From a virus, in the IMG/VR virus record IMGVR_UViG_3300031787_000093, positions 3,714 through 67,713 of that record: a stretch of DNA of 64,000 nucleotides; one strand, written 5' to 3'. Made by a program: the position numbers and the translations under genes. Below, in pieces: positions 24,901 through 64,000 of this stretch (its first letter is position 1; every line of letters starts with the position of its first letter). The notes under the pieces were generated by a model that saw nothing but the letters and a program-made list of their open reading frames with translations, searched no databases and had not been told where the DNA came from.

Positions 24901-27900
24901 CTTTTTGTAGTTCTGATTTTGTAAAATCCGAAGGTGATTTATATGGATCATATATGCCCCCCATATAATTTTGTATACCCGGAAACATGTCATAAAAAGA
25001 TTCTCGTGCTTCTGCGTCAGTAATATTTTCAAGTTCTGTAACTTCAGTTTTTAAATTTGTTTTGAGTTTTCCAGCCTTAATAAATTTAGGTATCATTTCA
25101 CTTACCCCACTGTCTATAGCCACCGGATCATCAATCATTATACCTTGATCAACCTGCACAAAATCTAAAAACTCTTGTTCACTAGTAAAAACTTGTAATT
25201 CTGATCCATCATCCAAAGTAATTTTAGTATCCGAGTCAAGACTATAAAGAAACTGTATAGCCTCAGCAAATTTTGAACTAGTAAATTCAAATTCTAAATC
25301 ACTAATAAGTGAACTAGGAACTACTTCATTATCGTTTAAAGCCCTTTTGATCTCAGTAATGGACTCAGCTACAAACCTAAATGATTGCAACGCAGTTTCA
25401 AGTGATCGACTACCAATTCCACTTCCATACATTATTTCACTTTCAATAACACCAGCAACAACATCGACTGCGTGATTATCATCACTAAGGTCAAATTGCT
25501 TGAGTATGTCAGCGTAACTTTCAAATATTAACTTCTGTTGTTCTAAAACTAACTCGTAGTTTGTTTTAGCTGTTTCAAGTTGTTTTTGAATTGGCTTTGA
25601 TGCTTTGGCTTTAATGAATTTTAATTCAGTTACATCCGCTACAATTAACTCTTCGTTGTTTAAACCTGCAAGGCTTTTGGAAACAAGAAATGCGTTGTGT
25701 AAACTCTTTGACTTATTTGCATCTCCTTCACCATATGAATTCATATAGTTATTGTAGATACTTTCAAGAGTCTGAGAATCCGAAACGCTTAAATCATAAG
25801 TATTAGAAATCAATTCGACAATTTTCTTTACACCTTTTTCTGTGTTAGCTGAAAACAATACTCTAGATATATCAGTAAACACACTTTTGTAACTAGTAAA
25901 CTGAAATAAGTTTTTGTCAATGTAAAAATCAACAATATCATTTACTAATTTCTCGGTATTCTCATCAATGAGTTTTTTGCCACGGAGTTCTAACAATTTA
26001 GTTCTCACTGCTGTAGGAGTTGCAAAATCTATTGTAGATTCAGGCAACTCTCCTTCAATGTGTTGAACAGCTTGTCTTAAAGCCTGTTGTAATTGAGGTA
26101 AAATATTTTTAGTAAATAACTTATTATAATTTTGCAATAAATTACTCACTGCCTCCGCTTCATACTTCTGTAAATTTATTACAATTTCTCCCGGTTTTTG
26201 TCCTTTTTTAGCGTCACCTCCGCTATCATACATGTAATTTGGTCTAAAGGAAACTGCTGGGAGATTTGCATCAACAACTGTACGAATGCTTACTAGTCCT
26301 AAATCAGGATATAAATTATACAATTCTTTATTTCCAGCAAGAGTAAATAACTTTCTAATGTCAATTACAGAAGTTAATTCTGGAGTATCTGTTCTTTTGC
26401 CAAAAAATTTAAACGTAAATTTTGGCTGAGCTTTTATTTTCTTAAAAGAATTAAAAATACCCTTGTATACTTCATTAGTCGTTTGAACATCAGCTACAAA
26501 TTTTGGATCAAACGCTACAGGAACTCCGGCTTCATTAAGTACTACACCGGTCATGAGTGTAATCTTCTCAAGTGGATAGTTCTTTTCTTTTAACTCCTTT
26601 GCTTTATTGACGTTTGGATAAATCTCTTCTGGGTTTAAATTAGCTGCATTCTGAAACAACGGAACCAAGTTTGGTGACATCTTTAGCCAATCTTGGAATT
26701 GCTGTTCTGTTCTCTTCAGCATTTCAATACGAGTATCCATGAACTCCTGAAGAGTTATGCCCATACGAGTTGCCTTGTTTTCAAATATGCGAAGAGCCAT
26801 ATCAGCAGATCCTGTTCTTTGCTCACGCATTTTCTTCCATCGGAATCTAGTCTTGAATGAAGCTTTTAAGCCCCAGTCATCTTTAAATTTCTTGTTTAAT
26901 TGCTTTCTGTATTTTTCACGAGTAGCATCATTCTCTGCAACAAGTCGTTTGCCTTCAGTATACTTTGCGTAATCAATAAGTTTTTCAGCTTGCTTCTTAG
27001 CTTTATCCTGAACTTGATCTTGGGTTTCGTTTGCTTTGGTTTCTACTCCAATGTTCTGAAGAAAATCCTCAGCGTTCAAATCACCATCCAAAAACATTGC
27101 AGCATCAACTTGTTTGTCTTCTATAAATGCCCCTTGTTTTTGTGTATTAGATAAAACGTTTGCAGTCTTTCTCCGTTTCTCATTTAACTGAGCTACTTCA
27201 GCAGCTTGTTTCTTTAAATCAGCTGCACGATTCTTTGAAGTAGTATTACTCATAGGAGTATTACGTACAAAAGCATTAGTTGTGCTAAAGGTATTTGCCC
27301 CTGTATATTTTACTGCAACAAAATTGTTAAAGTCTTTTCTAAGTTTCTGAAAACTTTCTATTCCTGCTTTATCGTTTCCGAAAATCTCTTTTACTTTATT
27401 GGTACTGTTCTGCATCAAGTTGATTATGAAGTTGTCAATTGCATCTTCTTTAGTCATCTTGCCTTCAGCAACTAGTTTACCGAACACCTGTTCAAACAAA
27501 GTGTTTCTGGCAACCGCCTCTCTAACTTTATCTGTAGTATTATCTTGCTGACGTTGTCTTGTTGTTTGGCCTGTTTGCTCATCAGTCTGAGTATTAAAGA
27601 ATTGATTATCAAAATCTCTAAACAAAGGAGCCATGTAATCTGAAACGTGAGCAAACTTTTTACGAGCCACGTCTGTTATAACTGCAGCTCCATCTTTGAA
27701 GAAAGATACCAAGTTAATCTTCATCTTAACTCCGAAGCCTTTGCTCATTTCAGATACAGCTTCTTTTATTGCATCGTCTTCTGAACTTACTTCGCTAGCG
27801 ATACCAGTAAACAAACCAACTCTCTGCTGAGCACTCTCATTCCAACTAGGCTGGTAACGTGCTCTTGCACTAGCCTCAGCTTGACTCATGCGTTTTTCTT

Positions 27901-30900
27901 TACGCTTGCTAGTTTTATTTTTGCTTTGATATAAAACAGTATTGTCTTGATTCTCTTGACCGTTTTCTATTTTTTCTTGAGAGGCTCTACGAGAATCTAA
28001 GTTTTTAATGGCAATGTTTTCAACTTTTTCTTTTGAAACAATACCGTACTTCTTAGACTGATCTTCTACAAACTGACGAGATTTATCGTTAAGGGGAACA
28101 AATTCATCTGTGGTACTGGTAAGACCCTGTGCTTCTAACTGACCAGTCTCCATGTTGTAGCGATAAACAACCTTGTTGTCTACTACACCGTTTTCACTGC
28201 TAACATAGAATTCTTCTCCCATGTTTCCAGTTCTTCTTTCAACTTGCACTCCTTCGTTTCCGACACCTGAACTTGTAAAGGTGTTGGTGGATGTGTTTTG
28301 ATCTGATTCCACAGGTCCTGTGCTCATTACCATCTGATCCTCAACAGCTGATTTTGTTTCGTTGGTACCATTTTCAACTGCTGTCGCAGTTGCGGTAGCA
28401 AACTCAGGTTCATCAGGTGTATCTCCTTTCGCCCCTCTTGTATTTTTAATAGTGCTATCGAGAATGGTTAAGATTTCGCTGTCAAATTCACTTACATCGT
28501 TTCCATAAGTATTCTGTAAATAATCACTAAACGCTTGACGTGTTTTGAATAAAATACCTAAGTTAGAAAGATTTCCTGCTGAAAATACAATACAGGTAAA
28601 TGCTGTCATCCGTAAATTCAACAACCTTTCATCTTCAGTTTTGCCATATGCGTTTTCAACAGCTTCTCTAATATCAAAGCCATTACTTTTAAATTCAGCC
28701 CATACATTTGCAAAACTTTCCTCAGTAAATGAACCAGCTGCCCCTGATATCGTTCTACCAAAAACAGTCATCAATTTACCAATTAGATTGGCTGGAACAA
28801 ATCTTCCTAAGCCTAAAGTACCTGTAACTTTATCGTAAACTTGATTACCCAGCTCTTCAGCTGCACCCATTGATCCATCTTGACCTACGGCCTCAAATAA
28901 CAAAGCTTGCTTTCCGTAAGTAGTCGCAGCTTTTTCAATCAAGTTGAATGTTGCAATACCTGTTCTACCGTAACGGTTTGCCATATAAGCACGAGCAGTA
29001 AGAGCCGTTTGACTAGTAAACAGTTTAGTCATGCCACCGGTCATGGGTTTCTGCATCAAGCCCATTTGCAGCACAACTCCCATTGTATTTAAAATGCCCT
29101 CACCTAAAGCTTTATCCTCGTAAATTGTTTCAATTGAGTTAACTACTTCAGGATTGACATACTGCCCACTCTGTTGTAAGAAATCAGAAGCTGCTATAAC
29201 TTCTTCTGATGGTGTTAAATATGTGCCTCCAGTAAATGATTCTGTAACATCCTTGGTGAACTTATTTACAAAGTTTGAACCTACACCTTTGCCATCAACC
29301 TTAGTAAGGTCGGTGTTGGTATAAATAATTTGGTTAGCTGCTCTGATCTGTGCCTTTTTTTCTATGATTTTATCTTTTAAATTTCTTTCATAGATAAAGT
29401 TGGCTTTCATTTGATCAGTGAAAACTATATCACCGCCTCCTCCAAAAGATGTAATCATAGATCCAACTTTTGCTAAGTAAGGCATTTCTTTATCTCGAGC
29501 TGCATTGTATCGCTCATCTAATTCTTCTGGGTCATATCCTTCTGGTAAAACAACATTTTTATTGAAACGAGTTGATTTATATTCTTTAAGTTTCTTTTCT
29601 AGTCCATCTAACTGAACATATAAAACATTTCGCTTTTCTTTTAGTATCGCTCTGTCAGTTTTCTTTTCTGCATTTAACGTATTAGAATATACAACCTGAG
29701 CTTGATCTTTATCTTCTCCTTCTAATCGATTACCATCTGAATCGAAAAACTCTTGAGGTGATAAATTATTAAGGCCAAAAAATCCAGCCTGACCTTTTAA
29801 CTGTTCAATCTGAGCACGTAAATCAGTAACTTGTTTTGTCTGTTCAGCTGTTAGTTTGAATTTACCATAGTATTGTTTTTCGGTAGCAGTTTTAGGTTTT
29901 TCAGCTATCGCATAAATCGCATCAATCTGATCATAAAGCTTAGCAATTTTTTGTTCTTCAGCTGATAGTTCTCCTTTTGCTCTTGCTTCAAAATTCAAAT
30001 CAAAACGAGATAACTTGTTACCAAACGCATCAGTCGTATAACCTAAAGATTTGCGTCGAGATTCATATTCTTTTTCACCAAGTGATCTCTCATACGCCAT
30101 CTTATACTTAACAAATACTTCATCAATTTCATCCTCAGATAAACCAGCTTTAGTCAACATGTCCACTAAGCCATCACGGTTTAAATCATTGAACGTTCTA
30201 TCCTTGGCATTAGGAATATCTATGCCAATGTTATTTCCTAAATCGTACTCATACAAAACTCTACCTAAATCTAATTCAGATATATTTGATAAAGCTGTTG
30301 AGTTTTCGTTTTCATCGTATACTGTTCCGCTTTTGCCAATAATTCCGTTCTCAACAAGTGATTCACCTTTAGCTACACGCATTGTACGATACTCTTTCTG
30401 CCTAGCAAGTTCTGCTCCAAAAGTAGTTTCGTTAAGAACAACTGAGTTTAAGATATCGTTTACACTTGTTATACCGATTTCTTTTAATGCTTTGCTGTAT
30501 TTTCGTGAGTATGCGTCTCTGTTAACTGGGTCAATTAAATAATCATAAAAATCTTCTTGAGTTTTAAAAGGCTGACCATATGCATCAACGTTTAATTTAT
30601 TGTTCTGAAGTTTAGTGTAGTTTTGATTTGCCTCGTAACGCTTTTGAGGAATGGCGTATGCTTCAGCAACTGGGTCGGGAGCAAACTGATCAAACTGAGG
30701 TTTGTAACCGGGCTGGTTTGCAGCGACCGTTTGTCTATTAAATACAGGAGAAAAGATTGTAGGCTTTCCGTTTTTAGTGTATTGGTATTTTTCATATTCT
30801 GATAACCCCCCTGATAAAACGTTATCAAAATCTTTGGCATCTCTAATGTAAAAATATTGAGCAAGCTTTCCTCGCTGTTCATTATAAAATACCGATCTCT

Positions 30901-31432
30901 CGTATGGGTCTTGAAGCAGTGATTCTAATTCTTCAGGTGTTTTTACTACAGTGCGTCCAACGACAACTTTGCCAGTTTCATCTTTTGCTGCAAGAAATAA
31001 GTTATCTGAGTCAACTCTCTTGCCCATAATTTTGTCTAATTCATCTTTTCTCTGCTCGGCTTTTTTCAAAGACACGTTTGCTTGCTGAATGGCTCTTTCA
31101 GAAGAAACTTTTAATTGCTGTTTTTGAGCTGGAGTCAACTTCTCAACTCCTGCTTTCGCACCTTCTGTAGCTACTTCCGCACTACCAAAAGTAGGTTTAG
31201 GCTTAGGTGCTGGTACCTGCATTGAGGGCGACAATGAGGGTTTAGGCTTAGGTGCTGGAATATTTCCACCAAGAGATTTTGGGGTTGGCTTTGGTGTACT
31301 TTCAACTGGAGTTACTTCATCAGTTGCCTCATCATATGTAAAACCCAATCCGTTTATTTTTGGCTCAGTGGTAGGTACACTGCTATTGCCTATTCTAGGA
31401 GTAGGTTTTGATTTGTTTTGATCTTCAGCCAT
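18950..31432 (-). CDS. 4160-aa large polyvalent / ejection (cargo) protein
   Basis: Zincin motif HELAH at 22841-22855, EIQSD-motif domain at 23729-23743, LPD23-like ELYNLYPDL segment near 26300; lies in the cargo-gene block. Confidence 0.75.
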   Translation of the reverse strand: MAEDQNKSKPTPRIGNSSVPTTEPKINGLGFTYDEATDEVTPVESTPKPTPKSLGGNIPAPKPKPSLSPSMQVPAPKPKPTFGSAEVATEGAKAGVEKLTPAQKQQLKVSSERAIQQANVSLKKAEQRKDELDKIMGKRVDSDNLFLAAKDETGKVVVGRTVVKTPEELESLLQDPYERSVFYNEQRGKLAQYFYIRDAKDFDNVLSGGLSEYEKYQYTKNGKPTIFSPVFNRQTVAANQPGYKPQFDQFAPDPVAEAYAIPQKRYEANQNYTKLQNNKLNVDAYGQPFKTQEDFYDYLIDPVNRDAYSRKYSKALKEIGITSVNDILNSVVLNETTFGAELARQKEYRTMRVAKGESLVENGIIGKSGTVYDENENSTALSNISELDLGRVLYEYDLGNNIGIDIPNAKDRTFNDLNRDGLVDMLTKAGLSEDEIDEVFVKYKMAYERSLGEKEYESRRKSLGYTTDAFGNKLSRFDLNFEARAKGELSAEEQKIAKLYDQIDAIYAIAEKPKTATEKQYYGKFKLTAEQTKQVTDLRAQIEQLKGQAGFFGLNNLSPQEFFDSDGNRLEGEDKDQAQVVYSNTLNAEKKTDRAILKEKRNVLYVQLDGLEKKLKEYKSTRFNKNVVLPEGYDPEELDERYNAARDKEMPYLAKVGSMITSFGGGGDIVFTDQMKANFIYERNLKDKIIEKKAQIRAANQIIYTNTDLTKVDGKGVGSNFVNKFTKDVTESFTGGTYLTPSEEVIAASDFLQQSGQYVNPEVVNSIETIYEDKALGEGILNTMGVVLQMGLMQKPMTGGMTKLFTSQTALTARAYMANRYGRTGIATFNLIEKAATTYGKQALLFEAVGQDGSMGAAEELGNQVYDKVTGTLGLGRFVPANLIGKLMTVFGRTISGAAGSFTEESFANVWAEFKSNGFDIREAVENAYGKTEDERLLNLRMTAFTCIVFSAGNLSNLGILFKTRQAFSDYLQNTYGNDVSEFDSEILTILDSTIKNTRGAKGDTPDEPEFATATATAVENGTNETKSAVEDQMVMSTGPVESDQNTSTNTFTSSGVGNEGVQVERRTGNMGEEFYVSSENGVVDNKVVYRYNMETGQLEAQGLTSTTDEFVPLNDKSRQFVEDQSKKYGIVSKEKVENIAIKNLDSRRASQEKIENGQENQDNTVLYQSKNKTSKRKEKRMSQAEASARARYQPSWNESAQQRVGLFTGIASEVSSEDDAIKEAVSEMSKGFGVKMKINLVSFFKDGAAVITDVARKKFAHVSDYMAPLFRDFDNQFFNTQTDEQTGQTTRQRQQDNTTDKVREAVARNTLFEQVFGKLVAEGKMTKEDAIDNFIINLMQNSTNKVKEIFGNDKAGIESFQKLRKDFNNFVAVKYTGANTFSTTNAFVRNTPMSNTTSKNRAADLKKQAAEVAQLNEKRRKTANVLSNTQKQGAFIEDKQVDAAMFLDGDLNAEDFLQNIGVETKANETQDQVQDKAKKQAEKLIDYAKYTEGKRLVAENDATREKYRKQLNKKFKDDWGLKASFKTRFRWKKMREQRTGSADMALRIFENKATRMGITLQEFMDTRIEMLKRTEQQFQDWLKMSPNLVPLFQNAANLNPEEIYPNVNKAKELKEKNYPLEKITLMTGVVLNEAGVPVAFDPKFVADVQTTNEVYKGIFNSFKKIKAQPKFTFKFFGKRTDTPELTSVIDIRKLFTLAGNKELYNLYPDLGLVSIRTVVDANLPAVSFRPNYMYDSGGDAKKGQKPGEIVINLQKYEAEAVSNLLQNYNKLFTKNILPQLQQALRQAVQHIEGELPESTIDFATPTAVRTKLLELRGKKLIDENTEKLVNDIVDFYIDKNLFQFTSYKSVFTDISRVLFSANTEKGVKKIVELISNTYDLSVSDSQTLESIYNNYMNSYGEGDANKSKSLHNAFLVSKSLAGLNNEELIVADVTELKFIKAKASKPIQKQLETAKTNYELVLEQQKLIFESYADILKQFDLSDDNHAVDVVAGVIESEIMYGSGIGSRSLETALQSFRFVAESITEIKRALNDNEVVPSSLISDLEFEFTSSKFAEAIQFLYSLDSDTKITLDDGSELQVFTSEQEFLDFVQVDQGIMIDDPVAIDSGVSEMIPKFIKAGKLKTNLKTEVTELENITDAEARESFYDMFPGIQNYMGGIYDPYKSPSDFTKSELQKELVDSGLIKQETFDKIYADYEANPEKFTGSVASNFIEPTAPLTVEEQQQLSEFLKIQELVEDSFSTSFYSGAAYATSKVLAQSKGKITVESLKSLLIKNGAKEVELNWLGFDDFISQYDTTVPASDLKTWSENIPQLFSYDRDSLNQSRTVDEVVYLGNDNFIERPDSIGDFVRTTAKKLDTTFTGKKVSFVIKRSDGTSRFVDLTQIADETLDLYESYIGKEKYPQFKETFEKLKKYQGVQITAENIEEIKTLLKLHFEASDEIIRQERVEGFEQFKSTIGQPLGQSYKEHLLGFPFSSNRLLQSYDEKILEKLEQLTKEKDFAGNYGTLDKLQNEITQLVKERNDLAKNYFDESHFSAIPNEVAMHMRTEIVVNENGERMLHVIEIQSDKAQNFRTLTLAEIKKQYPVESEFEQRIIQVQSTKENKNITREELKEKLKQLEDQDPTANDFNLSFNNYFLKQEAIKDAKNTFKKTSPIIETEQFVSIGIKHALKIASDYGVKKIVFSNGASIGAAVAGNQTGDKTSGLNKLYNETIPNKAKKLAKAYGFTTGTTKLNLTSFGRVDEVAKPDEFEFTLDPTEYPSYVDTLGNSVVNTGKLLTRLDVDEEFLNYVALETTGESFVPGNEFFTLELTDETFEAVAGGMALFQQDMHGAHGATVKTDQGKFIIFALTNPNITTAMHELAHVWEDSLTATEKKAFLKEVGHDKWTRATSEAFARHFEKYLADGKAPTSSLANLFANFKKWFLQVYGGIIGTPIEMKVSEPMRKLYDSMLGETQVKGVQMKKTPNVIEDIGNFIKDIKANPQFEEITDDELYTSLIRSGFEPQDVQDYFSLKQRANIEKQQQRGGIFKEEADAMENEAEAMRVVRDKKELLDAIDNIDPNDYPPILEALFTTVDNGDVPLAKAIMDLIAAKQNGGDPKMIHEQYSKILKAGTGIGRMLQLFKQLSKETYLSGAEAMFRRNEKQGLNIPQGAKTKIRDLANELDKLKDLYKESRNLAETDPYGTSKIDPSKTNLQYHLDLYEQLQGAQKRYIDARAPYEGDNSLTDMYRSFIKGGLMTPGSMSVNALSNITKYLTDLFVSPVRSGISLISNKLGITDSQYTKTGWRDFGAGNRYGIPMGLKKAAKILRDGTVTQAYQTPDAYVQGFNFYKSLQKFVGLKIDQYRIKAGMLDMTTEELAEKHGFAITNEGKISSKQQAIALLQGTFGFVPDVVFRVMGATDAVFRDFAYFSSVSEQFKFTAEHERYKKAIDAAKSSDERNRLKKEYEAIRKAYIIVNSDYKNSAAQEEAMRYVYNNDNAVSDVIARVQNITRETDDGFSIPAKISRIAGTSIIPFSRIPSNYAVELLEFFIPEYALVKIGIIGGARAVRRSQRAAKGELSAADSFNQRRADARDADRILARALIGTGIQFIALQAVKAGCVSGAPDDEGEDKKQSQSFSYSLERPYSINLTLLKDRFMSMVDSEYKSKRPNNLWNKEKDLIISYKSLGLFGAALYFQFKENKLALDKQNKFVNRGALEEAADEFGLNLFGNMNSAGKYIIDQTFVRGILSVAKAVTDEDENRLPTFFAEIVGTMASGLVPNSLSWIDKWRRDYVVDYDFRESPPIKMFGIKVEDPQATLFWMKLGTKLAERWPWKSIPGHYVDLPFVEIEMDKFPVKVDNFGKDVAITPVGSSNFGKWMYNTFDVLQVSRIVAGYNIPDWEALVYLAVKKGDAWDALPAAIPRNIETPFGAYKFAPEEYNNLLRYNAMLRRQLVQEYLIDTGEYKKYIEINSEMNYDPATKKPIAGLKNPNLLLGYEQLGKILKDIYHVADAMTNIANYTFMDFERRKLYNEDREKYIELIAREALSPMGQFQKEVYGNQEHGGNNLVQTEKQTNPLLNINYEMIKDPQRFKKYSKGAIKLFLQFQGDPQTAIQTAKNQQVETLKDDSTIMLGPDLDIVPLDQEKKSTPVAEAIKKQQQKAKPKNSTIDLGDGLILVPLE

Positions 31433-43495: not shown

Positions 43496-44857
43496 TTAAG
43501 CGATTAATTCAATCAGTCCGCAACGCTCAGCAGCAACATACAGACCGCAATCAGAAAGAATGTGGAAGTCCACACCATCAACATCGCTTGAAGACAAAGA
43601 ACCACTCAAACCATTAGCAAGAGCTTGCTTGATGGTAGAAGGATTAGAATCTTGCAAACCGATCATACCGGGTACGTAAGCAGCCAACATCTCATCATTG
43701 TTGAAGTGATACTTCTGCAAAGGAGAAATTGAACCGCTACCATCAGCAGCAGGGATTGGAGTTAAATCCAACACATACATGCTGTGAGACATACGAGGCT
43801 TACCAGTAACACCAGACAAATCGCCTTTGAATGCATCGTCATCCAACAATGCCCAACGAACGAAGTCAATCTTGATACCAGCATAGCTGTAAGTCATTAC
43901 GTTCAAACCTTCAACTGAAACCCCACCCAAAGTATTTTGGTTACCAGCATACTGGATATAAGGAGACAACAAGGTTTGCAAACGAGCCATCATAGCAGTA
44001 CCCATCATCGCAACTAAGTTACGACCGTTCTCGGCACTCTTACGAACCAAAGTTTCCAAGAAATCATTCAATTGAGTCTGAGTGATTTCAGTGGTCAAAG
44101 GCAAGTAAACTCCACCGTTGTTGATGATAGACCAACGAAGACCGGCAGTGGTGAAAGATTCACCTTGAGGACCGTTTACAACAGCACGCTCAGAGAACGC
44201 ATATTTGAACTCCAAGCTCTTAGAGAACTTACGAAGAGTCAAATCGTCATATGAACGATACCAGAAATCACCTTGCCACTTCACGAAAGAAGCAGAACGA
44301 TCACGACGTGCTTGGCTAGAGCTTTCACGAGTGATAGCAGTGTAGGTGAAATCAGTCTGAGGAACAAAGTTCAACGGAGATTTACCATTGCTATAACGGT
44401 TTGCACTAGAGTCAAACAACGACTTACAGATGCTACCTGCTAAGAAGTGATTAGCGATAACCAAAGTGGTATTCACACGCTTTACGATAATCTGGTTACT
44501 ACCAGAAGAAGGCTTGTCAATTACGATAGCCTGAACCATATTAGCGTCAGCAACGATGTCTCCAACACGGAAGTTAGAAGCATCATCTAAATTTACCAAC
44601 AAAGCTTCACCTACAGCATACCCAGTTGGGGTAGTAGAAGCAGCAGAAATACGAGAATAAACAGAAAGATTTCCAAGTGCACTGATTTCTACTTTCGGCT
44701 GAGGAGTCGAAATAGAAGAAGACAATTTAGAAGTCAACTGAGTCAAAACATTGTACCCATAATCTTGGGCGTAAACCATTGCCATTTTATTGGGCAAGCT
44801 CAACCCCCTAAGGAGGAGCGACTGGTTCAAATCGAGGTTAGTAACTGGACTTGCCAT
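43496..44857 (-). CDS. major capsid protein
   Basis: 453 aa; order portal-scaffold-MCP; FTTAGLRWSI and AAYVPGM resemble crAss-like MCP motifs. Confidence 0.8.
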   Translation of the reverse strand: MASPVTNLDLNQSLLLRGLSLPNKMAMVYAQDYGYNVLTQLTSKLSSSISTPQPKVEISALGNLSVYSRISAASTTPTGYAVGEALLVNLDDASNFRVGDIVADANMVQAIVIDKPSSGSNQIIVKRVNTTLVIANHFLAGSICKSLFDSSANRYSNGKSPLNFVPQTDFTYTAITRESSSQARRDRSASFVKWQGDFWYRSYDDLTLRKFSKSLEFKYAFSERAVVNGPQGESFTTAGLRWSIINNGGVYLPLTTEITQTQLNDFLETLVRKSAENGRNLVAMMGTAMMARLQTLLSPYIQYAGNQNTLGGVSVEGLNVMTYSYAGIKIDFVRWALLDDDAFKGDLSGVTGKPRMSHSMYVLDLTPIPAADGSGSISPLQKYHFNNDEMLAAYVPGMIGLQDSNPSTIKQALANGLSGSLSSSDVDGVDFHILSDCGLYVAAERCGLIELIA

Positions 44858-49029: not shown

Positions 49030-49716
49030 ATGGCACTAGGAAACAACTCGTCTGCGATCTACGTAGACTTGCGTAACGGCAAAGTAATGCGTTACAGCAA
49101 AACAAATGAACCCGGAACTTTTCCGGTTGTAAGTTCAAAAGGTGAAACTCGTTACTACTACATGTACGACTTCATCGAAGGTCACGTTACAAACTTCAGT
49201 ACAAGAGAAGAAGAAGTGGCCGGTAAAACCAGATTGAAATTTCAAGTACACCTTACAGATCAAGGAGAAAGCTACATCTTGAAAATGGATGTTGATTCAT
49301 CTTACTTTAGAATGTTCTGTTGCGTACTTCCAAACATTAACTGGAATTACCCTGTGCGTTTTATTCCTCGTATGAAGGAAGAAAACAACGTTAAGAAATC
49401 TTCATTGATTGTAGTCAACAATGGAAATCCTTTGAAGTTTGCTTTTACCAAAGACAATCCAAACGGAAAGCCTGAAGTTACTTTCACCAAAAACAAGAAA
49501 GGTGAAATCGTAGACATCGATCGTGAAGAGGAACAAAAGTTTTTCTTTGACTTGATCGCCAAAGCAAAGTCTCAATTAGTGCACCCAGCTGTTGCACAAG
49601 ACGCACCAACATCAGCTCACCCAACTGTAGACCGCATGGCACACAATGTGAAACCAGCTGAAAGCTTTGATGCAGACGTAAACCCATTTGAAGAAGACGA
49701 CGATCTACCTTTTTAA
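49030..49716 (+). CDS. ssb: single-stranded DNA-binding protein
   Basis: Acidic C-terminal tail EEDDDLPF; next to YqaJ. Confidence 0.7.
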   Translation: MALGNNSSAIYVDLRNGKVMRYSKTNEPGTFPVVSSKGETRYYYMYDFIEGHVTNFSTREEEVAGKTRLKFQVHLTDQGESYILKMDVDSSYFRMFCCVLPNINWNYPVRFIPRMKEENNVKKSSLIVVNNGNPLKFAFTKDNPNGKPEVTFTKNKKGEIVDIDREEEQKFFFDLIAKAKSQLVHPAVAQDAPTSAHPTVDRMAHNVKPAESFDADVNPFEEDDDLPF

Positions 49717-51319: not shown

Positions 51320-51524
51320 CCGGGAAGCTTTCGGTGATTACACATGCAATGGCGGTGGGTTAGTAGAAACCAAGAACAACCATTCCTACTGGTCTGGCTG
51401 TAGTTACCATGACAAACCATCCAATCACTGGGGGTTCAGGCATTGGATATGGATGCTTGCTGGCCTTACCTTCGCTGTATGGAACGTAATCGAAGTAATC
51501 GAAGATTCACAACAAAAAAATTAA
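51240..51524 (+). CDS. two-TM membrane protein
   Basis: Two hydrophobic segments around a Cys/His-containing loop. Confidence 0.6.
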   Translation: MKKLVSKGRILLMFALIFLMSYIPENNREAFGDYTCNGGGLVETKNNHSYWSGCSYHDKPSNHWGFRHWIWMLAGLTFAVWNVIEVIEDSQQKN

Positions 51525-51527
51525 GCC

Positions 51528-52091
51528 ATGAAAAATAAATTTTCACCGCACCGAATGAACACCTACCATAGAGAACTGGTTCAAAAGATCAGTACCTATT
51601 TCTCTAGTCAGATAAGTAAGTCTCCTTGGAGAACTGATTACATTGTACTGCGAACCTCCCAGCAGGCAACGAATGACTACAACGATACCATTTTCATCCC
51701 CAATTTCAACGATGAAGATGATTTCGACTTCTATTCAGCTTACAAGTGCAATGCATTTGCGAGTGATTCTGCTAAAATTATCACTGGATGTTACCAGTAC
51801 AGGTTAGCTAAACGTTTTGGTTGTATCTATGGACAGCAAATAGAACCTATTTACTACTACGATACGATCAATATGAACGTGAAGGATGATTACGAGGATA
51901 AACATCTCATTGGAATCAATTTATTGGCCCATCCACTGCATGTAATGATCCCATTGTATACCCCAATCTCAAATGTATCCAAAGGATCTATCATACTACA
52001 CCCAAGTGCACACCAATTACTGAAGAACAACTTCAATGAACAACCTCCAGCATTCAAACTTTTCGTAATTGACATCAATTTACTGCTCTAA
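51528..52091 (+). CDS. hypothetical protein
   Basis: 187-aa ORF. Confidence 0.65.
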   Translation: MKNKFSPHRMNTYHRELVQKISTYFSSQISKSPWRTDYIVLRTSQQATNDYNDTIFIPNFNDEDDFDFYSAYKCNAFASDSAKIITGCYQYRLAKRFGCIYGQQIEPIYYYDTINMNVKDDYEDKHLIGINLLAHPLHVMIPLYTPISNVSKGSIILHPSAHQLLKNNFNEQPPAFKLFVIDINLLL

Positions 52092-52176
52092 ATGCGTTTT
52101 GTTTAACTTTTGAAAGTCTCAACCCGGGAAATCGGGAGACAAAAGTTCAACAAACTGACAGTATCCTGACAAAAGT

Positions 52177-52209
52177 ACCCCCCTGTAGTAACATATAGGG
52201 GGGGTTTTT
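52177..52209 (+). terminator. intrinsic terminator ending the middle operon
   Basis: C-run/G-run hairpin followed by T5. Confidence 0.7.
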
Positions 52210-52784
52210 ATGATCCCCCCGGGGTAAAATACTGTTTGTGTGAGTGGTGGAGGTTTACGCTACAAAAATCTACAGCAAACCGCCCAAAAAAACACCCCCC
52301 GACTTCATGCACACACCCATACGCAAAACCGCACGCAAAGCCTTGTGCATGGTTTCGCACGCAAAATAAAAACGGAACTGACCTTCGGTCAAGCCGGGCT
52401 TTATCTAGTTGTAACAAACAAATGTTTGTGTCGGCTAGGGCTGATTTGGCTGGCTATAAAGGATTTAAACCTTCGGTTTACTTGGCTCTATAGAAAAGTT
52501 TGGCTGCTTCTCTGTCAATCAAACACTCTGTGTTTGGCTTTAAAGGTCACCGAAATTCAGTGCCAAGAAATTTTAACCGAAGGTTACCCTTACTATTTAA
52601 CAGAGATTCAAACTCTTTAGAGTTTGGTAGGAGGTTAAAGGAAGTTGGTTGAAGCCTCGCATGCACACGCATATGTGCGGTTTGGCTCGCAGTTCTCAGT
52701 GCGAAACAGCACATTGGCTTGGATGGGCTTGTTTGTGCCTCTATGCTTATACGCTATGCAAGACTTAACGAAGTTAAAGTGATT

Positions 52785-52825
52785 TGTGGATAACTTATCT
52801 TACCTATGGTAAAGGATGTGAATAA
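52785..52825 (-). promoter_or_regulatory. two DnaA boxes
   Basis: TGTGGATAA (52785-52793) and TGTGAATAA (52817-52825), both matching TTWTNCACA on the minus strand. Confidence 0.55.
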
Positions 52826-52860
52826 GTGGTTCGGAGTCCCAACCCTCCAAACCGACTAAT

Positions 52861-52941
52861 TACTTTGGGTTTTTATAGTGTTACTACTAACCCTTGTAAA
52901 GGGTGTAGTTAGTAGTAACACTTATATAAAAACACAAAGTA
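52861..52941. repeat. long intergenic inverted repeat H1
   Basis: Core arms GTGTTACTACTAAC / GTTAGTAGTAACAC, extending imperfectly to TACTTTG / CAAAGTA. Confidence 0.85.
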
Positions 52942-52946
52942 AAATT

Positions 52947-53882
52947 ATGAAAAACACCAAAAACACCACAGCAATGCAAAGCATTTCAAGTCAGATTACC
53001 GAAACAATGAAACAGAGTTTCATTGAATCAAGGAAAGTTTACACTAAGGATGAAATCCTTAGCCATCTCAAAGACTTTTCTTCTAGAAAAGTTAAAAAGG
53101 CTTGGTTAACCAAGAGAATAAACGACAGAGTCGTTTACCTTAACTTCTTGAAGTTAGCATCAACCGAAGGTTGGAAGCACTTTTATGGTCAGCCAATTCA
53201 TCAGAAGTTCGTAGAACTTCAGATGTCAACTCTTCAATCTATGATTGAAGTTAGGTTGAAACTTAGCCCTGAATCAGAGCGTGAGTCTCTTCTAGAGACT
53301 TTCCTGCATGGATTAACAAATCCTCAACCAAAGGTTGCTTCTAAGGTTGCTCCGAAGCCCCAACCGAAGGTTGTTGAGGCAAAAGTTCAACCGAAGGTTG
53401 TCAAGGCTAAATCTCAACCGAAGGTTGTTGAACAACCAAAGGTTGTAAAGGCTAAACCCCAACCAAAGGTTGCTGACAATCAATCTTCGATTGATACCGA
53501 AATCTTAACCAAGATTGTAAACAATCTTTCAGAGCAGGCTTCACAGTTAACGAAGTTAACTGAACTTTGTCTTGCCAATAGCAAGGCTATTGCAGAACTT
53601 CAAAACCAACCGAAGGTTGTTGAACAACCAAAGGTTGTTGAGAAAGCCAAAAAACAACCAAAGGTTGTAACTACTCAACCAAAGGTTGAGGCAGTAAAAG
53701 TTGTCACTCCAAGTCAACCAAAGGTTGCCAAGAAACAACCAAAGGTTGAAAGCAGCCAAATCAGTCTCTTGGAGGCGTTCATGAAGACTTTGTCTCCTAA
53801 GCGTGAAAAGAAATCTACGATTTCTCACAAAGATGCTTTTGAACTTGGCTCTTGGAAAAAGCACATCATGGAGGTTAAATAA
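52947..53882 (+). CDS. first early protein, with QPKV repeats
   Basis: ATG 52947 just after H1; 12 QPKV units each encoded by CAACCRAAGGTTG; terminator follows. Confidence 0.7.
   Translation: MKNTKNTTAMQSISSQITETMKQSFIESRKVYTKDEILSHLKDFSSRKVKKAWLTKRINDRVVYLNFLKLASTEGWKHFYGQPIHQKFVELQMSTLQSMIEVRLKLSPESERESLLETFLHGLTNPQPKVASKVAPKPQPKVVEAKVQPKVVKAKSQPKVVEQPKVVKAKPQPKVADNQSSIDTEILTKIVNNLSEQASQLTKLTELCLANSKAIAELQNQPKVVEQPKVVEKAKKQPKVVTTQPKVEAVKVVTPSQPKVAKKQPKVESSQISLLEAFMKTLSPKREKKSTISHKDAFELGSWKKHIMEVK
53161..53748. repeat. array of 13 palindromes CAACC-RAA-GGTTG
   Basis: Copies at 53161, 53325, 53361, 53388, 53415, 53433, 53460, 53607, 53625, 53655, 53676, 53715, 53736. Confidence 0.9.
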
Positions 53883-53895
53883 CCTCCATGTTTTT
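53867..53895 (+). terminator. intrinsic terminator
   Basis: CATGGAGGTTA / TAACCTCCATG followed by T5. Confidence 0.75.
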
Positions 53896-53940
53896 ACAAA
53901 AAATTAACTAATCAAAGAAAAAATCTAATCAAAAAAGACT

Positions 53941-54288
53941 ATGTTATTCTCAAAGTACAGCACACTTTTCACAACGGCTTTCGTAGAATTTAACCAAAGG
54001 TTAATTAATGCTAGAAGTAACTTCATGGATTATGAAATCCTCACTGATGAAGAAATCTTTAGAGATTTCGTCATGGATATCTTTGCTCTTCGCAAAATCT
54101 ATGGTAAAATCTATGAAGAAGACATGCATACTGAAATCCTACAACCAAAGGTTGAAATCATCTACGATTTGCTACAAAACAACATCGAAGATGTTAGAAA
54201 CGGCTCTTCATTAGTCGTTAGACTAATTGAAGAAATGTTCTACTATTGCAAGTCAATCACCGAAACAATTGAAAGCCCTCTTAATTGA
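53941..54288 (+). CDS. early hypothetical protein
   Basis: ORF preceded by TAATCAAAGAAAAA. Confidence 0.65.
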   Translation: MLFSKYSTLFTTAFVEFNQRLINARSNFMDYEILTDEEIFRDFVMDIFALRKIYGKIYEEDMHTEILQPKVEIIYDLLQNNIEDVRNGSSLVVRLIEEMFYYCKSITETIESPLN

Positions 54289-54297
54289 GGGCTTTTT
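54272..54297 (+). terminator. intrinsic terminator
   Basis: AAAGCCCTC-N6-GAGGGCTTTTT. Confidence 0.75.
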
Positions 54298-54335
54298 ATC
54301 TAACCATTAAATCACTCAAAGAAAAAATAAATCTA

Positions 54336-54623
54336 ATGAAAAACACCGAAATTCCACTCTACTATGTAGAAACCTACATTCACGGCACTGAAACAGAAGT
54401 CTTAGACTTTGTCTTAGAATTAAATATCTTGGCAAAAGGAGAGTACTTTCAGTACGAACTAACCGATCCTGTTCCATCGTTAGATGGAGAGGAAATTGAC
54501 CCTAATCAACCTGTTTATTTAGTGCATGGAATAGTCACAGAAAAAGATATCAAAGACTTGAATTTGCACTTAGACTTTCTAATCAGCGAACATCCAATAT
54601 CTAATCTAATCAAAGAAAAATAA
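54336..54623 (+). CDS. acidic early hypothetical protein
   Basis: ATG follows TCAAAGAAAAAATAAATCTA. Confidence 0.65.
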   Translation: MKNTEIPLYYVETYIHGTETEVLDFVLELNILAKGEYFQYELTDPVPSLDGEEIDPNQPVYLVHGIVTEKDIKDLNLHLDFLISEHPISNLIKEK

Positions 54624-54628
54624 ATCTA

Positions 54629-54853
54629 ATGAAAAATATGTCTGCAAAGTATGTTTACCTCGTTTTCCAAGTAATGCCGTTTGACGATTACCACCATGAG
54701 TTTGAAGGTGCCTTCACTAGTGAAGAGTTGGCAGAAAATTACAAGCGTTATCTAATTGATTTAGAAACAAAAAAGCACCCCGATTATGACTATCCTTTTT
54801 GGCAAGACTTTTATGTTTCCAAAGTTATGCTTAACCGAACCGAATCTTATTAA
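54629..54853 (+). CDS. early hypothetical protein
   Basis: VYLV...EGAFTSEELAE motif. Confidence 0.7.
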   Translation: MKNMSAKYVYLVFQVMPFDDYHHEFEGAFTSEELAENYKRYLIDLETKKHPDYDYPFWQDFYVSKVMLNRTESY

Positions 54854-54866
54854 TCAAAGAAAAATC

Positions 54867-55037
54867 ATGAATAATATCAAAGACAAAGACTTTTTAGCAA
54901 GTTTAATTTTCGCAATCCTCTTTTTTGGCTGTGCCATTTTCTGTGCTTATCTAAAAGATATTGCATCGTTAGCAGTTTCATCAACACTTAGTGTTTCTTT
55001 CCTAATCGTATCACTAGAACAATCAAAGAATAAGTAA
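54867..55037 (+). CDS. small two-TM early protein
   Basis: Hydrophobic; start follows the conserved upstream motif. Confidence 0.6.
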   Translation: MNNIKDKDFLASLIFAILFFGCAIFCAYLKDIASLAVSSTLSVSFLIVSLEQSKNK

Positions 55038-55048
55038 AAATAAATCTA

Positions 55049-55333
55049 ATGAAAAACAAACCAACACCACAAAAGTACTACAGCCTTATGGCTGAAATGA
55101 AAGCCACAGTTTATGCAACTATGGTAAATGAACACAATCAAAAGATTGAATTCCTAGAACATCCAATCCATGGTGACTGCTTCCCTATCATCGTAGCATT
55201 TCCAGAGGAAAAAGTAGCATTTTCTTCTCATTTCTATGATTTAGATGACATGATGAATGCAGAGCATTCAGACTATCGTCCTTTCCTTGTTGATGGTAAA
55301 TTGTTAATGGGTTTTGAAGTACAAGCAATCTAA
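55049..55333 (+). CDS. early hypothetical protein
   Basis: ORF with the conserved upstream motif. Confidence 0.7.
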   Translation: MKNKPTPQKYYSLMAEMKATVYATMVNEHNQKIEFLEHPIHGDCFPIIVAFPEEKVAFSSHFYDLDDMMNAEHSDYRPFLVDGKLLMGFEVQAI

Positions 55334-55336
55334 GTT

Positions 55337-55600
55337 ATGAGTATACAAGCACAAGTTGACAACATGATGAGAAACTTTGAAAGAATCGATCGTCCACAAC
55401 CAAAGGTTGAATTTATTCCTCAATTAGAAGACTATTGTCTTATGATTGACGGCAAATCCGACGGCTATGTTTATCATTATACGACTATAGTCGATATGAT
55501 AAATGACGGCTTCAGTTGGAATTCTAATGAAAAGTTCAAGAAGATGACTCGCATGACTGCCGAAGAGTTGCAATACTTCCTTGACAACCGAAAATTCTAA
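55337..55600 (+). CDS. early hypothetical protein
   Basis: ORF; carries one CAACCAAAGGTTG at 55397. Confidence 0.65.
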   Translation: MSIQAQVDNMMRNFERIDRPQPKVEFIPQLEDYCLMIDGKSDGYVYHYTTIVDMINDGFSWNSNEKFKKMTRMTAEELQYFLDNRKF

Positions 55601-55608
55601 TGCTCTTT

Positions 55609-55673
55609 ACTCTCTCTTCTTTTGTATATACCCTGAGTTCTTACGAAGGGTTATACAAAAGATTAGAGAGAGT
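55609..55673. repeat. long intergenic inverted repeat H2
   Basis: ACTCTCTCT-TCTTTTGTATA-TACCCT ... AGGGT-TATACAAAAGA-TT-AGAGAGAGT. Confidence 0.85.
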
Positions 55674-55733
55674 TAATAAGACTCCGAAACCCCAAAACAA
55701 ACCACAAAACAATCACATAATCACAGAAAAATC

Positions 55734-56036
55734 ATGACTAAAAAAGTAAAAACCTCCAACCAAATCCTAGTTGATGGAATCAAAAATTTGCATCCAATGT
55801 TTCAAGGCTATTTAATCGATAGATTAGAGAAAGACATCAAAGAATTAAGTGAGCAGTTGCCCGAATGGGCAGCAAGCCAAGAGGCAAAAAACTCCATGTT
55901 TCACCCTAACTTCTTTGTTCAGTACATTAATTCTATGAATCAAATCTTTGATGAGATGGACATCTCAGCAAACAAACGACTCTACAACGGCAACAAAGAG
56001 TTTACTCCAAGACCAAAATTATCTTATTTTGAATAA
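55734..56036 (+). CDS. early hypothetical protein
   Basis: ORF. Confidence 0.7.
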   Translation: MTKKVKTSNQILVDGIKNLHPMFQGYLIDRLEKDIKELSEQLPEWAASQEAKNSMFHPNFFVQYINSMNQIFDEMDISANKRLYNGNKEFTPRPKLSYFE

Positions 56037-56049
56037 TCAAAGAAAAACT

Positions 56050-56292
56050 ATGATAGTATTTATTGAAACCAAGTTTACACTTGAAATCCAACCTTGTCAC
56101 TACATTACTTCCGATTTTGTAGGCATTACAACAAAATTGTATGCAATCAGTCTCAAAGACCAAAGATCAAAGAAAGAACTGGCTCATCGACTTGTTCACC
56201 AAGATGAAATCTTGAATCATGTTGAAGAAATGCTACCAACTCATTACAACCAAATCAAAAATCAAATCAAATCAGAATTTAATCTAATCTAA
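56050..56292 (+). CDS. early hypothetical protein
   Basis: ATG follows TAATCAAAGAAAAACT. Confidence 0.65.
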   Translation: MIVFIETKFTLEIQPCHYITSDFVGITTKLYAISLKDQRSKKELAHRLVHQDEILNHVEEMLPTHYNQIKNQIKSEFNLI

Positions 56293-56294
56293 TC

Positions 56295-56858
56295 ATGAAA
56301 GACCAATCAATTACCTACGGTAACATCACTGTTGACATCATTTATGATGACAGCCCAGAAAATCCAAGAATGGATACCAACTTAACTCAGTTTGTTATGT
56401 TCCATAAACTTTTCAAACTGCCAAATGAAACAGGTATTTCAAACTACAATGAGTTTTTTAATTCTTGGAGTGAAATGCAACTTGACTTGCAGTCAAAATT
56501 CAAGCATGTGATTTCGGTTTATATGCTTCATCATGGAGATATATATTTTTCTTTGAGTGACTTCATGGACAAATGGGATTCGGGTCAAGTTGGATTCATT
56601 GTATCCAATGATGAATCAATAGAAGACTTCCGAAAAGTTGCTCAATCAGAACTTAATACCTATGGTTATTATGCTAGAGGTGAATGCTATGGTTTCACAG
56701 TCAATGAATCAGAGATAGAAGATACTGAGTCCGTTTGGAGTTTCTACGGCTCTGACCATCATGAAAGTGGACTCATAGAGTCATTGTATAGTGTTCTTAA
56801 GCATAGTTTTGCTCAGAACCCCAAAGCCATTGAAGAAATCGTAAAACAATTAAATTAA
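56295..56858 (+). CDS. conserved early hypothetical protein
   Basis: SPENPR...WDSGQVGFI...GECYGF pattern, which I recall from phage and plasmid proteins. Confidence 0.7.
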   Translation: MKDQSITYGNITVDIIYDDSPENPRMDTNLTQFVMFHKLFKLPNETGISNYNEFFNSWSEMQLDLQSKFKHVISVYMLHHGDIYFSLSDFMDKWDSGQVGFIVSNDESIEDFRKVAQSELNTYGYYARGECYGFTVNESEIEDTESVWSFYGSDHHESGLIESLYSVLKHSFAQNPKAIEEIVKQLN

Positions 56859-56865
56859 TCTAATC

Positions 56866-57189
56866 ATGAGAATAATCACAGAAAAATCAGTCAAAGCATT
56901 CATGAATGCTGAACGATTCAAAGAATCAAACACCGAAGTTGAAGTACTGCCAAATGTTACAATCTTACGATTGTTTGGAAATGCAATTGCTTATCGTTAC
57001 AACGACCCTCTCAGAACTTTGTCAGTAACAACCGCAGGTTGGAACACTGCAACAACTAGAGAACGATTGAACGGCTTACCTTTTGTAAAAGTATCAACAA
57101 GAAAAGGTCAACTATATATCAATGACTATCCATGGGACGGCTCATTGGTAGATGTTTTACCTTACGAAACTTATTCAACTAAAAAATAA
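56866..57189 (+). CDS. early hypothetical protein
   Basis: LFGNAIA...GWNTATTRERLN motif. Confidence 0.7.
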   Translation: MRIITEKSVKAFMNAERFKESNTEVEVLPNVTILRLFGNAIAYRYNDPLRTLSVTTAGWNTATTRERLNGLPFVKVSTRKGQLYINDYPWDGSLVDVLPYETYSTKK

Positions 57190-57216
57190 TCAAAGAAAAA
57201 ATAAATCACAGAAATT

Positions 57217-57576
57217 ATGGGACGCTATTATTCAGGAGACATTCAAGGTAAATTTTGGTTCGGTTTACAATCATCAGATTGTGCTGACCGTTTTGGTAAA
57301 ATGGGAGTTACTCCAAATTACTTGGAGTACTATTATGAACTTGATGATTTACCTCAAGTTGAAGCAGAAATCAAAGCTATCGAAGATAGTTTAGGTAAAC
57401 TCAAAGAAAAAATAGATAAATTCTTTGAGGTCAACAACGGCTACACTGAAGAAAGATTGGCTCAAAATGGTATATCAAGAGAATCTTTGTCTGAGTACGC
57501 TGACTTGCTCTTGGGTTATCAGATTCGAGATGCAATCATGGAAAACGGAAGTTGTCAATTTACCGCTGATTTCTAA
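57217..57576 (+). CDS. early hypothetical protein
   Basis: MGRYYSGDIQGKFWFGLQSS N-terminus. Confidence 0.75.
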   Translation: MGRYYSGDIQGKFWFGLQSSDCADRFGKMGVTPNYLEYYYELDDLPQVEAEIKAIEDSLGKLKEKIDKFFEVNNGYTEERLAQNGISRESLSEYADLLLGYQIRDAIMENGSCQFTADF

Positions 57577-63612: not shown

Positions 63613-63904
63613 ACAAAATATGAAACTATACACAGAAGAACAGATGCACACAGTAATGTTGTTAGCATTAGGCAAGTATCAAATCCACAGCAACAGAAAG
63701 GTATTAAAAGAGAATCAAGATTTAATTGATTCATTAATCCCCATTCAACTACCAAGTGACGAGGATATACGAGAAGAGAGATTATTACAATTTCCTGATT
63801 CTGAATATGCTAACAGGGCAAATGATAGACTTGCCTTTTATTGTGGCGCAAAATGGATGAGAGATAAAATACAAGGAGGTAACAAATGAGCAACAATAAA
63901 CAAA
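63593..63904 (+). repeat. 25-bp direct repeats TAACAAATGAGCAACAATAAACAAA flanking one gene
   Basis: Exact copies at 63593-63617 and 63880-63904. Confidence 0.9.
63599..63889 (+). CDS. small hypothetical protein, paralog of 160-408
   Basis: MKLYTEEQ, IPIQLPSDE and GAKWMRDKI blocks. Confidence 0.8.
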   Translation: MSNNKQNMKLYTEEQMHTVMLLALGKYQIHSNRKVLKENQDLIDSLIPIQLPSDEDIREERLLQFPDSEYANRANDRLAFYCGAKWMRDKIQGGNK

Positions 63905-64000
63905 GTAGTTTGGACAAAGAATTTGTACTCTACCAAGAAGCATTAGCACTAAAAGAACTTGGGTTTGATGAGCCTTGTTTTGGGTATTGGTATACCGAGC
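63886..64000 (+). CDS. partial hypothetical protein (ALALKELGFDEPCFG type)
   Basis: MSNNKQSSLDKEFVLYQEALALKELGFDEPCFGYWY..., runs off the window end. Confidence 0.7.
   Translation, partial: MSNNKQSSLDKEFVLYQEALALKELGFDEPCFGYWYTE

Follow-up and report, generated by a model that had tools for sequence, protein, structure and literature searches.

A field of short DNA hairpins in and before a gene of an uncultured crAss-like phage, and its possible role as an origin-type element

Our study examined a 64 kb stretch (the window) of a 67,713-bp viral contig, IMG/VR record IMGVR_UViG_3300031787_000093, and in particular the gene at 52947–53882, an open reading frame (ORF) whose product carries a QPKV peptide repeat, together with the non-coding leader upstream of it. 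The region from 52.38 to 53.89 kb is, with high probability, a field of short self-complementary DNA hairpins that selection has kept able to pair. The 13-mer CAACC-RAA-GGTTG, on which an initial annotation of this DNA had centred, belongs to a far larger class of perfect short hairpins, which the annotation missed. As the hairpins have been kept paired by evolution, the QPKV repeat is largely a read-out of their structure, and as the peptide repeat is the translated hairpin core, the gene is dual-coded. The best explanation as a whole, to which we assign a probability of roughly 0.4, is that the hairpin field forms an origin-type cis element; the origin function, as a claim of its own, is tentative.

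The repeated 13-mer and the pairing of its arms

The palindrome CAACCRAAGGTTG (CAACC-RAA-GGTTG) was found in 15 exact copies against 0.01 expected, a count reached in none of 100 shuffles, and the RAA loop lay on the + strand in every copy. Thirteen copies fell within 53161–53748, inside the ORF, and the remaining two at 54142 and 55397. The shorter form, AACCNNNGGTT (AACC-N3-GGTT), occurred at 20 sites (0.90 expected; at most 4 in any shuffle), of which 19 were located in 52468–57040 (52.4–57.1 kb) and one at 9745, with none in the 3.7 kb by which the contig exceeds the window. It was the commonest of the 256 palindromes of the 4-N3-4 type, and a scan of the spacing between AACC and GGTT found the 3-nt spacer alone to be enriched, with 20 sites at k=3, none at k=0–2 and 1–3 at k=4–9. 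The clustering was kept in two nearly complete relatives, where 10/11 and 11/15 sites were inside 2–3 kb. The second commonest 4-N3-4 palindrome, AATC-N3-GATT, had 11 sites against 2.0 expected (for example at 53236, 53482, 53812 and 51497), three of which fall in the QPKV gene.

The initial annotation had reported a dense AACC-RAA-GGTT array with 13 exact copies in the gene and no synonymous variation save at the loop base. Our analysis confirmed both, along with the further copies described at 52379, 52466, 52574, 52765, 53544, 53990 and 57029. Twelve of the in-gene 13-mers encode QPKV in frame, while the copy at 53161 is translated as STEGW; within the twelve, CAA, AAG and GTT were each used 12/12 times and only the proline codon differed (CCA 8, CCG 4). 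The copies at 54142 and 55397, previously assigned to unrelated genes, were found also to read QPKV in frame. Genome-wide codon usage was AAG 36%, GTT 45%, CAA 62% and CCT 41%, and a QPKV in the late gene 43496–44857 was encoded CAG CCG AAA GTA. Synonymous permutation within the gene, a codon-preserving shuffle, averaged 2.8 copies, and none of 1000 trials exceeded 8, compared to the 13 observed.

The DNA of relatives in hand comprised loci L001–L015 and L018–L020. Units were counted in ten genes (the window, L002, L004–L010 and L012), leaving out copies or near-copies (L001, L003 and L011) and fragments (L013–L015); within this set L005 is close to the window and L008 to L009. These genes contain 85 QPKV units, 84 of which have the form CAACC-N-AAGGTTG. 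The codons AAG and GTT and a following G were present in 85/85 and CAA in 84/85, and the proline codon was CCA in 48, CCG in 36, CCT in 1 and CCC in none. The codons of the repeat do not, then, vary freely among relatives, and other PK dipeptides of the same ten genes are often AAA-coded.

Units from a distant clade differ in the outer part of the stem. There, KPKVS is encoded AAACC-AAA-GGTTT, KPKAS AAGCC-AAA-GGCTT, QPKAV CAGCC-AAA-GGCTG and QPKVA CAACC-AAA-GGTTG, so that the preceding codon (AAA/AAG, CAA/CAG) tracks the next residue (Val GTT/Ala GCT), and the combinations AAA..GTT-T, AAG..GCT-T and CAG..GCT-G each retain the 5-bp stem. Of 117 PK units counted over 10 genes, 94 have the CC-N-AA-GG core and 85 of these have all five pairs, with arms of the type CAA..GTTG in 77, AAA..GTTT in 3, AAG..GCTT in 3, GAA..GTTC in 1 and CAG..GCTG in 1. 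The third pair was Watson–Crick in 93/94 core-bearing units, and 5/12 distinct arm types were fully paired, compared to 9% under permutation (p=0.0008). The constraint on the QPKV repeat acts at the nucleic acid, and it is base pairing, not fixed letters, that is selected in the outer stem. The fixed codons, the covariation of the arms and the synonymous permutation support the earlier proposal that selection acts on the nucleic acid and that the QPKV repeat is largely its by-product.

The wider hairpin class and the protein

Perfect inverted repeats with a stem of at least 5 bp and a 3-nt loop numbered 181, against ~62 expected, with 48 in the 52–56 kb bin compared to 3–13 per bin before 52 kb. 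Of the hairpins with the same loop and a stem of at least 7 bp, the early block (20.7 kb) had 20 and the remaining 47 kb had 3. With stems of at least 6 bp and loops of 2–5 nt, the 53-kb bin held 23 hairpins and each other 1-kb bin 0–7. Hairpins take in 52% of the bases of the gene, 18% of the leader and 20% of 54–58 kb, compared to 7–10% in controls. The N-terminal part of the gene, which is free of QPKV, contains 9 hairpins with stems of at least 6 bp, against 0.9 under synonymous resampling (maximum 5 in 500). The genes of relatives held 11–24 hairpins each, those of the central segment being at matching places with different letters, and in the distant clade there were 13 hairpins/kb in the gene versus 1–2/kb further upstream. 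The same scan peaked at 8 per kb in phi14:2 and 7 in crAss001, compared to 23 here.

Furthermore, the hairpins outside the arrays show compensated changes among relatives. At 53232, in the N-terminal coding part, AATC/GATT is replaced by AAGC/GCTT in L010 and L014 (Ser to Ala and Ile to Leu) and by TATC/GATA in L012, and the hairpin at 53284 has undergone two different double changes. Third positions were compared for codons with the same amino acid in all rows used (8/11 aligned rows, without L005, L012 and L014); 19/29 were unchanged in stems versus 4/25 outside (Fisher p=0.0003). The leader was tested with its nine hairpins, 54 pairs in total, in 8 of the 11 loci that possess it. Here 92.3% of cells were paired compared to 83.4% in shuffles, and 19 pairs were compensated compared to 9.0 in shuffles (0/500 reached 19) and 1–4 in slid controls. 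The covariation score was 0.257, against 0.102 in shuffles and 0.02–0.06 in slid controls. Leader loops vary freely, and at 52466 TTC flips to GGA, GTA or GAA. The stem of the composite hairpin before the start codon is still paired with changed letters in relatives (15/15 in L002, 14/15 in L006), and a gene-end hairpin of 8–11 bp was located at the same place in every full-length relative. Hairpin stabilities computed with standard DNA parameters ranged from -2.9 to -7.2 kcal/mol. In the next gene, AACATC-GAA-GATGTT at 54181–54195 corresponds to GACACT-GAA-AGTGTC in L012, with several compensated changes; further downstream, hairpins are partly conserved at 56482, 57940 and 58588 and decaying at 58232 and 56200.

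The ORF is real, as it is open in all relatives with in-frame length changes and its synonymous sites outside stems vary freely. The predicted layout of its product starts with a helical N-terminal domain and closes with a short C-terminal part; between them lie two disordered PK-repeat linkers and a long helix in the centre. AlphaFold returned a five-helix N-terminal domain (predicted local distance difference test, pLDDT, 81 when folded alone) and disordered PK arrays (pLDDT ~33), and the two six-unit clusters fall in the predicted disordered linkers. We found 41 homologues at 70% identity or above in the N-terminal part and three more at 36–39%; the N-terminal domain of the distant clades is only 35–37% identical. 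A DNA locus was sought for the distant homologue P0042 and none was found. The product matched no Pfam or PHROG family and gave no profile match to the phi14:2 Rep_Org protein g022. Its folds, whole and N-terminal domain, had no match at E ≤0.001 in PDB or BFVD, and the ESM Atlas leads were all <0.9, the best VIA Z being 7.8, which is generic for helical proteins. Array copy number ranged from 6 to 13 units across relatives, 27 nt of array 1 are missing from one public contig (run X2), and assemblies break within the arrays, as expected for repeats. The features of the region are collected in Table 1.

Table 1. Features of the hairpin field and its surroundings (window coordinates)
Feature	Position	Strand	Remark
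Terminator-like hairpin and T run ending the upstream gene 51528–52091	52178–52212	+	
Conserved non-coding region upstream of the gene, with nine perfect hairpins	52092–52946		82% identity to L001
Nine leader hairpins	52379, 52414, 52466, 52520, 52574, 52609, 52765, 52800, 52890		Perfect stems
DnaA-box-like 9-mer pair, 32 bp apart	52785–52793 (perfect), 52817–52825 (one mismatch)	-	Consensus match
Long composite hairpin, arms I1/I2 around ACCCTT-GTA-AAGGGT, directly before the start codon	52860–52942		Stem kept paired in relatives
311-aa ORF	52947–53882	+	52% of bases in perfect hairpins
Eight differing hairpins (one 5 bp, seven 7–9 bp; 3-nt loops), N-terminal coding part	53005–53304		Includes the out-of-frame CAACC-GAA-GGTTG at 53161 (STEGW)
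Array 1, six in-frame CAACC-RAA-GGTTG (QPKV) units	53325–53472	+	
Central segment with 7–8 bp hairpins at 53479, 53544 and 53576	53479–53596		Encodes the long helix
Array 2, six in-frame CAACC-RAA-GGTTG (QPKV) units	53607–53748	+	
Terminator-like 10-bp hairpin across the stop codon, then T run	53867–53890	+	
A-rich 40-mer	53899–53938		85% A+T (genome 99th percentile 80%)
Out-of-frame TTAACC-AAA-GGTTAA, gene 53941–54288	53990–54004	+	Reads NQRL
In-frame QPKV copy, gene 53941–54288	54142–54154	+	
In-frame QPKV copy, gene 55337–55600	55397–55409	+	Kept in the L001 homologue
CAACC-GCA-GGTTG, gene 56866–57189	57029–57041	+	Reads TAGW

Possible roles of the hairpins

Selection at the level of DNA is a somewhat better account of the hairpins than selection at the level of RNA. 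In the early block, perfect stems were ~14-fold enriched, compared to 1.1-fold for stems with one G-T and 2.3-fold for stems with one A-C, and in the leader 5/431 cells were G-U versus 35 that were doubly changed. A G-T wobble test found no + strand excess, and among early-block stems of at least 7 bp with one mismatch the 12 A-C versus 3 G-T was not significant given base composition. When the AACC family was set aside, 27/71 hairpins with a 3-nt loop in 52–64 kb had a GNA or TNC loop, versus 8/71 in 5–48 kb, and a 5′-pyrimidine closing pair was present in 64/71 versus 32/71. Stable triloop hairpins of DNA are characterised by such loops and closing pairs. The covarying arms, the rarity of G-T, and the loop and closing-pair features thus favour DNA mini-hairpins or cruciforms, and argue against both a fixed dimeric-protein site and folding of the sense RNA. 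The initial annotation had offered a hairpin signal or a site array for a dimeric protein; the former fits our data and the latter does not, because the arms covary while keeping their complementarity.

In the explanation that we prefer, the members of the field (stems of 5–9 bp, mostly with 3-nt loops, CAACC-RAA-GGTTG being the iterated one) would act in DNA, either as cruciforms that extrude or by the folding of DNA that is transiently single-stranded. The x-P-K-(V/A)-x repeat is the translated CC-RAA-GG core of the hairpin with its three covarying outer pairs. The whole may constitute a cis element of the origin type, lying within an organiser-like gene of its own and working with the upstream pair of DnaA-like boxes and the downstream A-rich stretch. 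The boxes at 52785 and 52817, assigned on the DnaA-box consensus, are 165 and 130 bp upstream of the gene, and both were within one mismatch in 10/11 close-relative loci (L007 has one box). The A-rich 40-mer, ~150 bp past the last array unit, is at the same time just the intergenic spacer that comes next. Replication and recombination genes lie on either side of the unit. Counted towards an origin setting were a DnaB/Toprim helicase-primase, a protein with a DnaA C-terminal helix-turn-helix and, shortly upstream, a YqaJ exonuclease and an ORF ending in ...DDDLPF.

Several observations weigh against this explanation. The box pair was absent from the distant clade (0/2 loci), DnaA-like boxes were not enriched genome-wide (17 versus 20 expected), and the ORF product matched no initiator family or known fold searched. 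The repeats of lambda-type origins are protein sites that tolerate asymmetry, whereas here the pairing itself is kept, and GC skew is confounded by gene orientation. An origin would also leave unexplained the 3–4-fold hairpin enrichment across other early genes. In 84/85 array units the loop opens with a purine, at the third position of the proline codon; this + strand asymmetry optimises the hairpin of the + strand only, and so a sense-RNA or strand-specific role is possible. Finally, template-switching homogenisation of the arms could mimic compensation.

A role in RNA, with the hairpins acting in a monocistronic mRNA or its leader through stability, translation control or an RNA-binding protein, is considered unlikely. 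The purine bias just described would suit it, the unit is bounded by terminator-like hairpins, and the sense strand folds at z=-8.1 relative to shuffles. The early non-coding regions of phi14:2 are also highly transcribed (10.1101/2020.03.07.982082). However, G-U pairs were not favoured, the antisense strand folds better (z=-12.0), and loop orientation is balanced outside the arrays (GNA 16 versus TNC 11) and flips between relatives at 52466. An Rfam scan of 51500–57500 returned only two chance-level rows (E 0.49 and 0.57), far below gathering scores, and a tRNA scan found none.

Early control of an N4-like or T5-like kind is improbable to a similar degree. Here the extruded hairpins would be promoters, loading or pause sites that serve a polymerase, either injected or made early, or, with the DnaA-like boxes, an injection-stop or entry signal. 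In geometry they match the promoters of the N4 virion RNA polymerase (RNAP), with short stems, 3-nt loops, a sheared G:A and free paired letters (PMC4496689). The injection-stop region of T5 is described in 10.1101/866236 as crowded with repeats and palindromes and as carrying DnaA boxes. Single-stranded DNA serves as template for the virion RNAP of phi14:2, and no upstream sequence motif is common to the early transcripts of that phage (10.1101/2020.03.07.982082). An orphan 4160-aa protein sits in the virion-gene block of our contig. Despite this, no RNAP family was found by Pfam among the ORFs scanned and no DFDxD motif in the six frames scanned, and the 4160-aa protein has no similarity to phi14:2 gp66. 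The ~25 hairpins spaced 20–40 nt apart in one ORF, in both loop orientations, are unlike a few promoters at fixed distances, and phi14:2 and crAss001 contain no comparable element at the peak densities given above. We also considered, and rejected, the idea that hairpins generally mark what a crAss virion RNAP transcribes, as the early block of phi14:2 was only ~2-fold enriched (33 in 41 kb versus 24 in 59 kb) and crAss001 showed no enrichment.

Less likely again is a structure-coded initiation platform, on which extruded DNA mini-hairpins would be recognised by a phage enzyme, an N4-like strategy that would have arisen independently in a freshwater crAss-like lineage. The helicase-primase is one candidate for the enzyme and a polymerase activity concealed in the 4160-aa protein another, and the coding gene would have been written over the platform, so that hairpin thermodynamics would dictate x-P-K-(V/A)-x.

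We regard as very unlikely an iteron or operator array in which a dimeric protein recognises CAACC-N3-GGTTG by its sequence, as in the lambda origin (ori). The recurrence of the 13-mer, the rank of its core among 4-N3-4 palindromes, its presence out of frame and in non-coding DNA, and the two clusters in one ORF, like lambda ori in gene O, would all be accounted for. However, both arms change together (AAACC/GGTTT, AAGCC/GGCTT, CAGCC/GGCTG and GAACC/GGTTC), which a base-specific reader does not need, and adjoining hairpins with unrelated stems are kept by compensation. Lambda iterons are, moreover, mostly imperfect palindromes, and fold searches found no DNA-binding fold in the ORF product.

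An absence of function, with repeat expansion and template-switch correction between quasi-palindrome arms making and homogenising the palindromes, is just as doubtful: it would fit the variable copy number and the 27-nt deletion, and arm conversion would give perfect stems and apparent compensation without G-T intermediates, but even clades as far apart as the distant ones have the dense hairpins in this one gene only, relatives place hairpins at matching positions while the letters differ, the biases in loops and closing pairs run with hairpin stability, and compensation includes paired amino-acid changes in a conserved domain.

Genome setting and known systems

The contig encodes crAss-like virion proteins, namely a muzzle protein (Pfam, E 1.7e-54), ring protein 2, the crAss capsid and a portal, and the structural genes occupy the - strand at 5–48 kb. 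These virion genes make a freshwater Bacteroidota a tentative guess for the host. A + strand block starts at ~48.3 kb (48.3–49.0 kb) and runs across the contig end to 5 kb. It includes the YqaJ exonuclease, the Toprim/DnaB helicase-primase (764–2488), a DNA polymerase (PHROG match) and many small ORFs. The suggestion that the array marks the start of the early region was not borne out, as this block starts ~4 kb upstream of it. The two DnaA-like boxes may be read by the 165-aa protein at 4567–5064 (+), in which Pfam recognised a DnaA C-terminal helix-turn-helix (PF08299, E 4e-11). A 228-aa ORF at 49030–49716 (+) ends in ...EEDDDLPF, as does its L001 homologue; a family match was looked for and none was found. 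Single-strand-binding proteins bear acidic C-terminal tails of this kind.

The 4160-aa ORF (18950–31432, -) gave no Pfam, PHROG or PDB sequence match and contains no DFDxD, and a 612-aa ORF at the end of the structural block (5048–6886, -) was without any match. A large terminase subunit was not recognised by Pfam in 53 ORFs and further ORF sets or by PHROGs in part of the ORFs. One ORF matched lambda NinG (E 1.8e-11), and a scan for sigma-70-like promoters was at chance level. A ~117-nt stretch starting with ATG is found near both contig ends (first ~200 and last ~120 bases; window ~63880–64000). The sequence preceding the two copies differs, and they look like paralogous gene starts or an assembly-stopping repeat rather than a clean circular overlap. 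Sequencing runs holding at least half of the window's sampled words are labelled as freshwater or ‘fungus’ metagenomes, and neither the region, the portal nor ORF 52947–53882 had a DNA or protein match among 50,697 deposited phage records.

A literature search, short of full texts and supplements, found no description of a hairpin-dense gene of this kind. The gene is an unusually clean case of dual coding, in which a protein repeat and paired replacements in a folded domain are explained by the pairing of DNA stems. For annotation, the warning is that a low-complexity PK repeat may be the shadow of a structure in the nucleic acid. If the field is an origin or a polymerase-loading site, it would give a group of uncultured freshwater phages, whose genomes lack an annotated origin, promoters or polymerase, a cis signal that can be recognised.

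The hairpins resemble several known systems in part. Like GNA-triloop mini-hairpins with C-G closure, every array core is C-RAA-G on a C-G stack, and the loop is GAA in 36/85 units; it differs from them in the 48/85 units where the loop is AAA. The AAA loop is not known as a DNA loop of special stability.

The virion RNAP of phi14:2 transcribes the entire rightward block, all of it early, and long intergenic stretches within the block are highly transcribed (10.1101/2020.03.07.982082). Long intergenic stretches are also present in the early block of our contig, although phi14:2 had no hairpin-dense window in the same scan. The N4 genome has three hairpin promoters upstream of early genes, which extrude from supercoiled DNA. 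As in our field, these are short DNA hairpins with 3-nt purine-rich loops in which pairing matters and non-contacted stem letters are free (PMC4496689). N4 differs in having a recognisable virion RNAP, and here ~25 hairpins lie in one ORF and 9 in the leader, with loops facing both ways. The injection-stop region of T5, as described in 10.1101/866236, combines repeats, inverted repeats and palindromes with DnaA boxes, and is comparable to our hairpin-rich leader with its two boxes. However, the T5 region is untranslated, lies in the terminal repeat and has eight boxes, whereas the main array here is coding.

The closest parallels to an origin-type element are lambda ori, inside gene O, and SPP1 oriL, inside gene 38, which are in-ORF repeat clusters near replication and recombination genes (PMC6316719 for SPP1). 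The repeat clusters of our gene fall in predicted disordered linker regions; those of lambda gene O and SPP1 gene 38 (same source for SPP1) likewise occupy linker-coding DNA. The lambda iterons are protein sites, of which 1/4 is a perfect inverted repeat, whereas here complementarity is conserved and covaries. The repeats of SPP1 are direct (PMC6316719), whereas those described here are self-complementary and the rest of the gene is hairpin-dense too.

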